From Orbicella franksi (taxonomy: Eukaryota): a DNA stretch of 64,000 nucleotides. Where the stretch lies: the NCBI GenBank assembly GCA_964199315.1, contig OZ116710.1, positions 1,116,001 through 1,180,000 on the forward strand, read 5' to 3'. A program made the translations under genes and the position numbers. The notes below the pieces were generated by a model. The model searched no databases and was not told the origin of the DNA. It was given only the letters and a program-made list of their open reading frames with translations. Positions 40,901 through 52,900 of this stretch are shown piece by piece (position 1 is the stretch's first letter; the number at the start of each line of letters is the position of its first letter).

Positions 40901-43900
40901 CTCCACTCTTCCTCTTCAGTCATTTATTGTTTTCATTGTATTAATATTAGTATTAGTATAGTTTTTTAGCAGTGTCCCTTAATTAGTATGGTGTATTATT
41001 TCCAGGCTATAAGGTTTTTGACACTTTAATAAAGTTCTCTCTCACTCACTCACTCACTCACATTCCTGTTTGTACTGCGTGCTGGTTTTCAAAGAAAAGG
41101 TTGGTACATCAAGACTATCCTCCTCCTCGTCAAATAAGTAAAAGCGCACGATAGTGAGGACACCGAAAGCACAAGCATAAGCAGAACAAACGTTTCTGTT
41201 CTTCTTGTGCTTATACATACGTCAAGTGAGAACGCCCTGCTGTAAACATAGCATAAGCAAAAGTCCGCAGTCTCGTTTTAAGTACTGTTCGAGGAGGTAT
41301 AGAACCGAAAATAAAGCAATTGCCCATTCTGCGCTTGCCTACGTGCTAATGCCGTGAGCCTCCCCACTACCGTAATGCCCTTGTTTGTGTTTGTGCTGAT
41401 GTCGTAATTGAAAACCAGGCTTTACGAACGAGCCTTTCCAAGAATTTGGAGTCCGAGTCGTATATATTTTTAAAGTTGGCGTTAATTTGCTGAAGCCACA
41501 GTTAGCCTAATTTAGCGTACTACATGGATATTAAATCCGATCGTAAAGTGCAAGTAAAGTGAAGAAAACTGTTAAAAATTTTACTTGTTGTCATGTGTTT
41601 TCTTTTATTGTGTTATTATAGTAGTAGATGATGGGTCTGACAAGTACCCGGCAAGATGTTGCCGCCTCGGCGGCAAATATTTTGTCAGTATTTGTCAGAC
41701 CCATCATCTACTACCGAGGGCGCGCGCCGCAAGCAAGCCGTCTGATGTCGCACAACCCATTTGAACACTTGCCTACCCTGGAAATAAGATGTATATTGCG
41801 CTGCACGCCAAACGGTTTATCAAGATGGCCCCTCCAAAGCGCGGTAAAAAGCCCCCGTTTATTGCTTATCAAAATGAGATCGTGTAGATGTATCATCGCG
41901 CGAGAGGGTGGAAGAGGGGTTTGAAGATGAAAAGAAAGGTAGGAGGTTTATAAGATGGACCTTTGCCAGGAGGTTGGGCTTCAATAACAATCCTGCTATC
42001 ATGGAAAAGTTTAGGCAACGCGTCCACTCGGCGTTCTATATTCGTTACATCTATGCCTGTTAGATTTGAAACGCCGATCAATTATCAATTTCCTAGCAAC
42101 TTCCTACTGATTTATTATCAGTTATTATTCAAGCCAAGTACGTGATTTCAAAATCAGAGCTTTCATGAAATCGTGATTTCCACACGTATGTAATAGTTCT
42201 AGAACTTTTGCCGCTAGGAAGTTGTCTTTATTGTGGGCGCCACGTTTCCCTAGTTTTTTCACGCAGGATAGGTAATACAAGACTACGCGCAACTTCTTTA
42301 AGTCAGAGATTGTTAGTGAAGTTACATCGCTACCGTGCTACGATCAGAGGATCCAAGTTACCGCTATTTCAAGTGTATTTCGCTGTCTCTCTGCTACCTT
42401 TTGGTGCGAGTCGTCAACCAAAGTACATAAGTTCTTATTGTTGTAGTTATATGCTAAGTCGCGAATTGTTAGTCTTTTCTTTGTCACGAAAAGGTTTCAT
42501 TTAGTTTATCTGTGTTGGGGTTGAAATCGCTTTCACAGCTCTACTATTGCTAAGGCTTATCGTCAAGTTACTATATTAGTCCAGTTGTTATATGATTACC
42601 AAATTGTGATTCTTTCACGCTATATTTAGCTATTTTGCGCGATAGCCGTTGATGTCTTCGTTTGCTTCGACAACAGTTGTTATCGTCTCAGTTTTATTAG
42701 TTTCAAGTATCAATTGTCACGTCTATTTGTTTCACGCTGTGATCTTGTTAGTTTATTATGATTATTCTATCCTGTTAGATTTTTATTTTATGCCTTATCT
42801 AAGTAGGACGTATTCTTAACTATCGCTTTTCAGTTCGAACCTACTACATCTACGTGTACGACTACTACTCCTATTCGTATCTGCTACCACTAGCGATCTA
42901 CTGGTTTTCAACAACTTTTTTGCTCAACAACTTTGCAGCCGGGTGCTTCATCAATACCATCAAGTGGATACCCGTCTGCATTATGAGAAGGATGGCGCTG
43001 CTCCGGGGAACTGAAATCGATATGTTTCGTTGTGATTAGTACCGTGTTGGCTACCATGAGCAGCCACCCACATCTCAACGCAAGACTTTCGACAAGGGTG
43101 GATAACTCTTTGGTGATGACGTAATCTTTTTTGAGATCATTCTGGAGAGCTTCAACTTCTTTAATCGGCACAAACGTCCCAACCGCCCTTGTGTACAACG
43201 AGAGAAAGCTATCAACAAATGTTTCAGTGGTCTTGGCGCCCACATAAGTCTCGTACCTTTTGTAGTACTTTTCAACATCTTTAGCTTCCAAGCGCGTAAC
43301 TTGCTCCTGTGTCAGCTGCACGCCGATGGCTTCTTTTGCTTTGCTTGTAGAAACCAGAATTGTAAGCTCTTCATGGAGGGCTGGAATGTCAGGCCCTCGC
43401 AGACTCAACGAATCGGTCAGCGAATGACTCTTCGTGTAAGGTTCAGCTTCCAGAAGGCTCGTGGCTTCAGCCATCACAGGATCATTTCCTTCAGCCATCG
43501 TATATATTGTAATTTTATTCTTTCAATTCAATTGCGAAAGAGTGGCGAAGAGAGAACACCAGGTAAGAGAATTTGCGCTCTTTCAGCGTTGCAATCAGCT
43601 GCTTGAGGTCATCTTGGGAGAGCTCGCCCGCGTATTCTTTGAAGATGGCCTTCGTGGCCTTGGCCGAAGGGTTGTGAAACAACACGAGCCCTGCCACATT
43701 TTCACGGAAAGGCTTCGCGATGCTGGTGAGCTGCTGAGTCAGCATCCACACGCTGATGTTCGCGTGGCGGGCAGAAAAGCCAAGGTTGACAAGCTCGCCA
43801 GTCCGCCCTTTCACGTCTTTGGAGACCGCGCAGTCATCAAGGACTATAAGGGTGTTGGCCCCTTCAAAACACCAGCTCGCCGCCTTCAACCAAAGCTCCA

Positions 43901-49900: not shown

Positions 49901-52900
49901 GTGTTAAGGATATTGGGGACTGGATGCTGCGCAACAAACTTAAGTTAAATCAGGATAAGAATGAAATTTTGTTTATTAGTTCTAAATATCGTCCACGACC
50001 ACCCCTCGACTATATACGAGTTGGTGATGAAGTAATCAAGTCTAAAAAACAGGCCAGGAATTTAGGAGTTGCATTCGATCAATGTTTGGATTTCAAAGAA
50101 CACGTTAAAATAACCTGCAAGAGCGCATTTTTCCGCATTCGTAGTATAGCTAAAATTAGGCGATACCTATCCCAGAGTACTACTGAGACTATTGTTCACG
50201 CTTACATAACATCGCGTTTGGACTATTGTAACGCCCTACAGTACGGTCTCCCAAAGTATCTGATTAATAGACTTCAGCTTGTACAGAACTCAGCAGCTCG
50301 CCTTGTTACCTTGACTAGAAGGCAGGAACACATCACACCAATACTAAGGAGCTTACATTGGTTGCCAGTTCATTTTAGGATTATTTTCAAAATATTGTTG
50401 TTAACTTACAAAGCTCTGAGTTGACTGGCCCCTGATTACACTAGAGACCTGCTGCGATTTACCATTTCTAATCGCACACTGGGATCTTCAAACGACAGGT
50501 TGCCTGATGAGCCTAGAGCAAATCTTAAAACGTATGGTGAAAGGGCTTTTTCCGTGGCGGCGCAAAGGCTCTGGAACAAATTACCCCTCCAGATCAGACT
50601 TTCATCATCAGAAGCAGTTTTTAAGGCTAACCTTAAGACTTATTTTTTTAAGCGTGTATTTGATTTGTAATTTTTACGTTTTTTTTGTAGCCTTATTGCA
50701 TTATATAGCGTATTTAATTCTTAGGATTTTAACTTTTAGGATTTAGGATTTTGGGTTTTTAAAGGATTAGGATTTTAATTTTAGGATTTTAAACTTAGGA
50801 TTTTAATTTTAAAGTATTGTAAAGCGCCATGGCCAATTAGTGGAAGATGGCGCTATATAAATGTATATTTATTTTTATTTTTTTATTTTATTTATTTTAT
50901 TTTTAAACAAAGGCTTCGATTGACTGATTGATGCGCGAAAGGCCTGTCTGCGTCAAACCGGCGGCTGTGTTTGGGGCGAACCAGTCATACTGGGCCACGG
51001 CATCAGGCTCAATGAAAGAAAGCAAATTTCCTTTGCTTGTCGCCCCGCCTTCATCACTGTATTTATAGAACCCTCCTGGATAAGCGGTTCCTGTTCTCAT
51101 TGACCCGTGCCCTATCACGCCAATGTATACGCTTCCCAAGTCGTGGTTTTTCTCGTGTGTGAAGCGAAAATCGCTCGTTGAATTTATTCCAAACTCGTCG
51201 CATATTCTTTTGTATGAAGCCACGTCATAATGATTGTCGAATTTATTGAATGTTGGGTCGCCTGGCAAAGCGCTGATGTTCTGAATACCGCCAAGCTGGC
51301 ACAAAATTCGCCTGACCGTGAAATACACGTGGGATTGATAAAAAAAAGCCCTTACTTGCGGCGGCAGTGCCAGACCGCTGTCATCGCTTCCACTGGTAGA
51401 AGCAAAGATTTCTCGAGAAATTCCACAACCTTGTGTCGCACAGAAAACTGCAAAGTTTAGTTGTTGTGGCCAATATTTCATGTCGGGCCCTCCAAGCCAC
51501 CTCTTTGATTTGGCCGCAGTGTTGTGCCTGAGTTTTGTTTGTTGAAATATTTCTCTGAATTTTGTCACGAAGGTGTCTCAGGTCACGTCGATGTTTATGT
51601 TTTGGTTGAATATTTTCTGAAGGCTCGGCGCCGTTTTTGTGAAATCTACGGCTGGGATTGGCAGTGCTGTTTTTGTTATCATTGGCGACAATTGATAGTG
51701 AAAGCCCGCGACGCCCATCAGACCTAGCGCAGATTTCACTGCCTGACTCCAATACTGCCTGTCTGAACCAAACACGCTTTGAAGAGCCCCCTCCCCTGCT
51801 TTGAAAAACATTTCTGCTGCGATGTCGCGCGTTTCATCAACATTTATTTGTGCCGCGAATTGATGTTTATCAGCATTCGGGAGCTGTTTTGTGAATGCTG
51901 CCCACGCGCTTTTTTTAGCCGCGGCTTCTTTGGCTTTCGTGTCTGGCCTTTGCGCCCGTTTTTCAACGCCTCCATTTTGAATATGTTATATTTGTACGAT
52001 ATAAAATGGTTGTGCTTACGATTGTCGCGCAAAATAACGGGGAAACTGTGTACTTTGAGGAGCCGCTCCCGAAGGTACATTTCATCAGACTCCTCTCTTG
52101 CAGTTTGTACAATAGCTGGCACAATCTGAAAAAAGAAGGTTCAGCTGAGTTGGGGCCCCAGGATGTTCCAGCCAAGGCGGTTTCCAAAATCCCCCCTAGG
52201 CATATACTTTAGAGATCTTGGCAAAAGTAATAGACAGCCTGTACTCGCAATATAGTTATAACCAATTAGATACATAAACAAATGAACCTGTTGGCCAGCT
52301 TGTAATTAGAAATTTTGGGCGAACACTAGTTACCCTTGATCGTGATTTAGCCAATTTGTTTGGTATTAAGCGTAATTTAAAAACCATAACACATATAAAA
52401 CGGCTTACATCCCCAACGACATATTTTGTTCATTGCTATCTGATCGACAAAACCAAAAACTTTTTAAACAGGAAGAGATCAGATGTTTTGGCTAGATTTG
52501 ATATAAAAGGCTTGCCTTATGCAAAAGTAAGCTACGATTCTACTCTGCAACAGGTGTTGCGTGACTGTTCTACAGACGCCCATATAAATAGCATAACTGT
52601 CAGCGTCAAAGATGACTAAGGCGAGCTCTTTGATTTCAAAGGCATACAATTTGAATTAGAAATTAATTAACGCTTTTTATACCATGTCGTCTGCGAATGT
52701 TCTGCCTTCTGCTCCTCCTGAAAGCTCTCGGGAGCCTCTCTATCCCGTACTGACGGTACTAGCTGAAAATGTCCGTTTGCAAAAGATCGACGAGATAGCC
52801 AAAGTTTTGGACCAAGAGGTCGGCCACTATCGCCTCGTTGCGAAAAAATACAAACGCGCAAATATTCGTTAATTGGAGTGCTGCGGGCTCCAGTTTTCTT

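Follow-up and report, generated by a model that had tools for sequence, protein, structure and literature searches.

A TATA word close to start codons in a coral Polinton-like family, and the polymerase that may read it

Introduction

Which RNA polymerase reads the genes of an integrated Polinton-like element is a question raised by a stretch of the genome of the coral Orbicella franksi (64,000 nucleotides; assembly GCA_964199315.1, contig OZ116710.1, positions 1,116,001 to 1,180,000), hereafter the window, in whose numbering features are placed. The window contains a decayed 12.7-kb Polinton-like element with broken reading frames, and a sequence-only reading had pointed to a TATA word immediately before the start codons of its genes, interpreting it as a late initiator like those of nucleocytoplasmic large DNA viruses (NCLDVs). 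The transcription of animal Polintons, and any dependence of theirs on giant viruses, is an open question in the field; the literature that we searched, which took in few subscription papers and no bioRxiv supplements, yielded no description of promoter motifs for animal Polintons.

Results

TATA immediately precedes start codons in the window copy

The decayed element carries all six TATA sites, each at the place first reported. On the minus strand, TATATA (43501-43506) lies 2 nt 5' of the start of gene A (TATA-CG-ATG, 43498), TATA at 45361-45364 lies 5 nt 5' of the major capsid protein (MCP) start inside a divergent spacer (TATA-CACAG-ATG, 45355), and TATA at 51987-51990 lies 11 nt 5' of the start of gene E (51975). 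On the plus strand, the word is found at 45408-45411, 3 nt from gene D (TATA-CTC-ATG, 45415), as TATA(AA) at 52000-52003, 2 nt from gene F (TATA-AA-ATG, 52006), and at 52678-52681, 2 nt from gene G (TATA-CC-ATG, 52684). The letters A, D, E, F and G label five conserved genes without assigned function. The divergent spacers, MCP/D and E/F, measure 59 nt and 30 nt as had been claimed. The remark that genes launched from the terminal inverted repeats (TIRs) are without the motif proved uninformative, the left one being a PolB remnant and the right one not identified.

TATA is present within 12 nt at 6/6 starts, compared with 1.9 expected from shuffles of the 30 nt upstream (P=8.6e-4). The 12-nt limit was chosen on the window and then used unchanged for all other sets, and the ATPase gene, which has a decayed start and no TATA there, was excluded from this count. 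When all seven spacers are considered, the probability that five or more have TATA within 5 nt is 2.5e-4, and that of any 4-mer doing the same is 0.009. The spacers are 70-100% AT. Of host ATGs drawn at random with an upstream AT content of 75% or more, 150/607 have TATA within 12 nt, as do 11/17 AT-matched host ATGs with at least 90% AT upstream. The pattern of the window copy exceeds what chance would give, and the proposed enrichment held.

The motif is shared by relatives in the same genome

The family numbers hundreds of copies in the coral genome, which contains 372 capsid candidates. Of these candidates 100 were scored, and 39 of the 41 places matching the capsid/D spacer were analysed, the two excluded being the window itself and one 59-bp match. 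The counts cover only copies with a placeable start codon; these copies are related by descent and hence are not independent. TATA ends no more than 12 nt from the ATG in 29/30 copies of gene A, 31/37 of MCP, 27/35 of D, 33/33 of F and 27/29 of G, so that these five genes have the word at 77-100% of starts, with shuffle rates of 0.18-0.38. In most relatives gene E has AATA 2 nt before the ATG in place of the TATA seen in the window.

The relatives also encode an integrase (RVE) and a polymerase (pPolB), as found by Pfam scan. Integrase starts have TATA in 16/21 distinct upstream sequences, and one polymerase type has it at 9/10 starts, with some uncertainty in start assignment; in the other polymerase type, an open reading frame (ORF) 5' of the polymerase has TATA at 14-17 nt. 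The polymerase of a more distant lineage (L160, below) carries the word as well. We therefore rejected the suggestion that the motif is late and limited to structural genes. The distance from TATA to ATG varies from 0 to 12 nt, and up to 17-18 nt for some capsid and polymerase starts, with the word itself constant.

Several further features of these relatives were noted. In many copies (L003-L039) the start of an additional gene, Z, follows a pyrimidine-rich tract with CAG ending one base before the ATG, resembling a splice acceptor; standing there instead of a proximal TATA, this tract would point to nuclear processing for gene Z. Near-identical integrases in L043/L047 and L041/L055 come with polymerases of two types that are unrelated and share about 22% identity, and one type has an Endonuclease_7 insert; this looks like swapping of replication modules within one family. 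Polymerase genes also occur as inverted pairs with identical scores about 15 kb apart, at G000:C7 22.256/22.271 Mb and G000:C4 14.531/14.546 Mb (L060-L062, L078-L079); the 10 kb between the genes of the G000:C7 pair has no ORF of at least 150 aa. The capsid/D spacer of L140, L143, L146 and others has a near-palindromic TTTTCAATTGAAA core, resembling the giant-virus early motif AAAATTGA.

More distant lineages and a VLTF3-bearing family

For the distant lineages, start codons were assigned from homology or as the first ATG. In a metagenome subfamily whose capsid identity is 66-68%, TATA precedes 6/10 starts (P=0.036 by mononucleotide shuffles, 0.0009 by dinucleotide shuffles), and L160, with 39% capsid identity, has it at 7/8 (P=0.0015), the polymerase included and the ATPase again without. 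Counting the window, the signal is significant in three of six lineages and falls short of significance in two, while the last has no TATA as near as 12 nt. We conclude that TATA before the ATG is a real, family-level trait that is not universal.

L160 (JBAJNK010000102.1) is a Polinton-like virus contig inside a Flavobacteriales metagenome-assembled genome, where it is likely mis-binned, and the remainder of its element was not found in that genome. Capsid relatives matching at E<=1e-30 number roughly 240. Scans of IMG/VR with the capsid, four capsid alignments and one ATPase alignment gave no relative, the phage collection gave no match, and PDB sequence searches returned nothing significant. 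A capsid-relative tree, which was quick, had no bootstrap and contained unnamed relatives only, was used only to choose subgroups.

A separate family in the coral's own genome, which encodes a homolog of the late transcription factor VLTF3, has TATA at 9/9 starts, representing about six distinct genes (nominal P=1e-4). Matches to Pox_VLTF3 occur at eight places in this genome, the best being a stand-alone 184-aa frame (E=6e-8; L161:1447-2001, at G000:C9, about 25.23 Mb) beside a low-GC Polinton-like element with polymerase and ATPase matches. The frame has 123 homologs, many on megabase-size contigs, with no named giant-virus match among them. Exaiptasia is listed with a marker that groups with Asfarviridae (PMC5294986, Table 1), in a column that we take as VLTF3, the layout of the table being ambiguous.

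An upstream element in one clade

When 29 representative promoters are aligned on TATA, T-rich and then A-rich positions are seen around -22 to -15. TT.AA ends 14-19 nt before TATA in 17/29 of them, with 4.0 in shuffles (maximum 11 in 1000 runs) and 21/282 at AT-matched host TATA sites. TT.AA as a universal element was rejected on held-out sets (2/4, 0/4 and 0/7), and we treat it as a lead confined to one clade.

Comparison with other promoters in the same genome

The protease-bearing Polinton family that shares the coral genome with these elements (group 1) has TATA at 1/17 starts, with 1.4 expected; its upstream stretches are less AT-rich, a difference for which the shuffle corrects. The genes of this family (L063-L076) are mostly co-directional and often overlapping, with AATAAA after some gene blocks, in an adenovirus-like layout. 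The TATAAA of host histone H3/H4 genes stands 57-74 nt upstream in 18/18, whereas the TATA of the element lies close to the ATG, which bears out the proposed misfit with the geometry of a Pol II TATA box. Six of eight genes of the element family have no canonical TATAWAW between -110 and -22, and the other two have it rarely (D 4/35, G 9/29); the host-type arrangement of TATAWAW about 55-75 nt before the ATG was not found to describe the element genes.

Organization and classification of the element

The left copy of a 5-bp target-site duplication is at 41615-41619, with the identical five bases at 54285-54289. The TIRs, recognized by inverted-repeat pairing, occupy 41620-41778 (plus strand, AGTAGT end, internal hairpin) and 54093-54284 (minus strand, ACTACT end), and an internal inverted repeat within each (41621-41714; 54158-54282) makes a hairpin possible. 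Next to the left TIR, a 132-bp remnant of the pPolB N-terminus (41926-42057, plus) has 45% tblastn identity to the ORF that encodes the N-terminal part of the polymerase in a relative; tblastn against relatives gave no further polymerase or integrase match in the window copy. About 800 T-rich nucleotides with no clear gene (42100-42900) lie between this remnant and gene A, at a place that gene Z and additional genes occupy in relatives.

Gene A (42908-43498, minus, 196 aa) is conserved by tblastn with relatives and has no Pfam match over the cut-off. It is followed by a broken A32-like packaging ATPase gene (43515-44107, minus; Pox_A32, E=5.9e-6) and a broken double jelly-roll MCP gene (44137-45355, minus) with 65-70% identity to a relative. 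The identification of the window MCP as a double jelly-roll capsid takes its fold from a modelled relative, whose predicted structure (pLDDT 93.5) matches PBCV-1 Vp54 and other NCLDV capsids; a first, shallow capsid model (pLDDT 57) was not used. The top BFVD fold match of the capsid is unnamed and 10% identical. Gene D (45415-47494, plus) is coiled-coil-like and broken, and was placed by tblastn, its Pfam matches being weak and under the cut-off. Gene E (47534-51975, minus) is conserved and broken; its four tblastn pieces are split by a LINE retrotransposon on the plus strand (approximate limits 48368-50900; RVT_1, E=7e-26, at 49405-50421). Gene F (52006-52667, plus; tblastn) is also broken and encodes about 224 aa in relatives. 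It had been called penton-like, a label that we could not confirm, as there is no Pfam match and its Atlas look-alikes are all unnamed; on size alone a minor capsid, which in Polinton-like viruses has a single jelly-roll fold, is plausible. Gene G (52684-53128, plus) is broken, with a hydrophobic two-helix middle that is SLATT-like by eye and no Pfam match.

TIRs with a 5-bp target-site duplication, and a double jelly-roll capsid with an A32-like ATPase, are features of Polintons and Polinton-like viruses (PLVs; Polisuviricotina; for classification see 10.64898/2026.06.19.733378, PMC8502044, PMC10748475, 10.64898/2026.10.13.758929). The pPolB and RVE integrase of this group are present in the relatives, the window copy having the polymerase remnant only. 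An adenovirus-like cysteine protease (Peptidase_C5), a mark of group 1 Maverick-Polintons (alpha adintovirus), was matched in a scan of 50 proteins solely in the co-resident family, and in none of 22 window fragments. A profile comparison with the capsid candidate of that group-1 family (probability 10% over 53 columns) does not place the capsid in the group 1 Maverick-Polinton clade. The stony-coral polintoviruses and Polinton-3_NV/N1A_NV are likewise endogenous elements of cnidarians with pPolB, integrase, ATPase and capsid, some of them outside the Maverick clades.

Discussion

Because the layout resembles the initiator-type promoters of asfarviruses, we tentatively favor, with a confidence that stops short of even, the interpretation that TATA gives each gene a promoter of the initiator type and that a co-infecting giant virus, not host Pol II, provides the RNA polymerase. 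Also on its side are the enrichment over shuffles in three lineages, the chance-level count in the group-1 family, the distant TATAAA of host histone genes, the rarity of canonical TATAWAW, the TT.AA counts in the 29 aligned promoters, and the VLTF3-bearing family with TATA at all nine starts. Late promoters of African swine fever virus (ASFV) are described as having TATA as initiator across the start site, 5' untranslated regions that are short and AT-rich, an AT-rich motif further upstream and poly-T terminators (PMC7458399, PMC7163114), and promoters of Asfuvirales share with the coral family TATA near the start codon, short AT-rich leaders (predicted ones in the coral family) and an AT-rich element shortly upstream (PMC7458399, PMC7163114, PMC11788076). 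They differ in that poly-T terminators are absent from the coral family and the coral start site is a prediction from sequence; in ASFV itself the poly-T terminator (6-7 nt) is missing in about a third of genes (PMC7458399). The proposed NCLDV late initiator thus survives in its conservation and its likeness to the ASFV initiator (PMC7458399, PMC7163114), and fails in its restriction to late, structural genes.

Under helper-virus transcription, TATA 0-12 nt before the ATG of most genes in this Polinton-like family would be the likely transcription initiator in a compact per-gene promoter. Transcription may start inside TATA, leaving 5' leaders of 0-12 nt; TT.AA 14-19 nt upstream could bind an initiation factor; the ATPase may be read from the capsid transcript; and the RNA polymerase would be supplied by the helper, most likely an asfarvirus-like giant virus.

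Parasites of giant viruses offer parallels. TATATA is common to a pacmanvirus transpoviron and its helper (PMC11788076), Type 4 EMALEs (mavirus-type) have the late TCTA motif of CroV (PMC8547959), and Gezel-14T (PgVV) has the early motif AAAATTGA of PgV (10.1101/2022.07.28.501842). Mavirus, EMALEs and Gezel-14T resemble the coral family as small integrating double-stranded DNA viruses with a short promoter word in AT-rich spacers; the coral family differs in its animal host, its TATA motif, and in that it has no known helper and that a protease was not found, and the mavirus capsid has about 10% identity to that of the coral family by structure. An animal precedent is provided by the entomopoxvirus-associated PLVs of insects, proposed as NCLDV hyperparasites and found in occlusion bodies with their virus (PMC11296320). 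The Ca_PLV1 polymerase matches coral and anemone proteins at 35-44% (PMC11296320, supplement S13), and transcription is not mentioned in the main text of that paper (Barth et al. 2024). The coral promoter layout would work like that of a virophage, a likeness in function that carries no claim of virophage membership.

A number of observations weigh against transcription by a helper. Among relatives in the coral genome TATA is at or below chance for the ATPase (6/36), E (2/27) and Z (3/29), the looser [AT]ATA being present at 34/36 ATPase and 27/27 E starts. Two distant lineages are not significant, L165/166 (capsid 40%; 4/7, P=0.13) and L180/181 (capsid 61%; 4/9, P=0.2), and in L182 (capsid 43%) 0/5 starts have TATA within the limit, four having it at 14-18 nt. 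TT.AA is a post hoc finding from a set that contains related orthologous spacers, it overlaps the last codons of the preceding gene in tandem genes, and it failed in the held-out sets. No VLTF3 match lies in the window or in the analysed loci of its family, and a search of the coral's own genome for NCLDV capsid genes, which had no positive control, gave no match. ASFV-like T6 terminators are nearly absent (0-2 copies per gene). The stop codon of the ATPase overlaps an AATAAA in 28/35 copies, and A[AT]TAAA is present at the end of F in 25/30 and of G in 8/10; the signals at the ATPase and F stops fit Pol II. Poly(A) signals are almost missing from the ends of A, capsid, D, E and Z, and the gene-end signals taken overall are mixed and do not look asfarviral. 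Hallmark genes of coral polintoviruses are also expressed in both control and heat-stressed colonies (PMC11131425, Stephens et al. 2024); in the text of that paper the words 'promoter' and 'motif' are absent and no promoter analysis appears.

The RNA reads were too few to give start sites, which contigs cannot give either. The raw reads came from three poly(A) runs, two of them on a single sample, with 12-25% of each run covered; compared with one relative rather than with the window copy, they gave 7, 4 and 714 reads, the 714 lying on both strands with no 5' pile-up. The group-1 control family gave 4, 0 and 268 reads in the same runs, and since this control is equally quiet, the near-silence does not discriminate; the RNA data neither support nor refute the helper idea. 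The deep contig coverage of gene D in run X6 was discarded as a sign of expression, because summed contig depth does not measure expression.

The alternative that survives best, which we nevertheless consider somewhat unlikely, is that host Pol II reads the TATA initiator in the nucleus, the family being an autonomous nuclear virus whose compact promoters do without a TATA box and give very short leaders. This would agree with the AATAAA or ATTAAA that ends the MCP-ATPase, F and G units, with the family's possession of its own integrase and polymerase, with the precedent of TSV, with the failure to find helper genes in the genome by the NCLDV capsid search, and with reports of coral polintovirus expression without a known helper (PMC11131425). 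It agrees less well with an upstream AT element that is nearer than a Pol II TATA box would sit, with the near-absence of poly(A) signals from the ends of D, E, A and Z, and with the different layout of the co-resident group-1 family. Leaders of 0-5 nt are moreover poor substrates for scanning ribosomes, which counts against reading by Pol II.

TATA may instead have no role in transcription, as a by-product of short AT-rich spacers, of TA slippage and of selection for an unstructured translation start, inherited across copies. The AT content of the spacers, the quarter of AT-matched host ATGs with the motif (11/17 at 90% AT or more), the limitation of family-wide carriage to five structural genes and the three non-significant subfamilies would all be expected on this account, which we think improbable: three lineages are significant under both mono- and dinucleotide shuffles, a variable distance to the ATG with a constant word suits an initiator better than a ribosome context, and the upstream element holds a constant distance to TATA. 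Very improbable, and rejected as a general explanation, is that each palindromic TATA acts across a divergent pair, supplying the gene on the other side with a conventional Pol II TATA box. In its favor, each TATA in the 59-nt capsid/D spacer is about 50-55 nt before the opposite ATG, close to the histone spacing as measured from the TATA end (53-70 nt). Against it, genes A, G and integrase, which stand in tandem, are left unexplained, the crossed orientation lacks TATAWAW (MCP 0/37, D 4/35, E 0/26), and the E/F spacer is just 30-35 nt.

Returning to helper-virus transcription, the promoters of the window copy itself are most likely fossils, because its polymerase and integrase are missing and its frames are broken. 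A broader and doubtful picture is that the coral germline may hold hundreds of copies from two or more virophage-like families, of which one encodes a giant-virus late transcription factor of its own. An asfarvirus-like virus of corals, yet to be discovered, would switch them on, and they could amount to an inducible, heritable antiviral defence in an animal. Two Polinton families with opposite gene layouts are present in one genome, and the motif of one of them predicts both an exact start site and a class of helper. If helper dependence is true, promoter layout would separate helper-dependent from autonomous Polintons across animals, and corals would have a virophage system like that of protists, with a bearing on coral disease.

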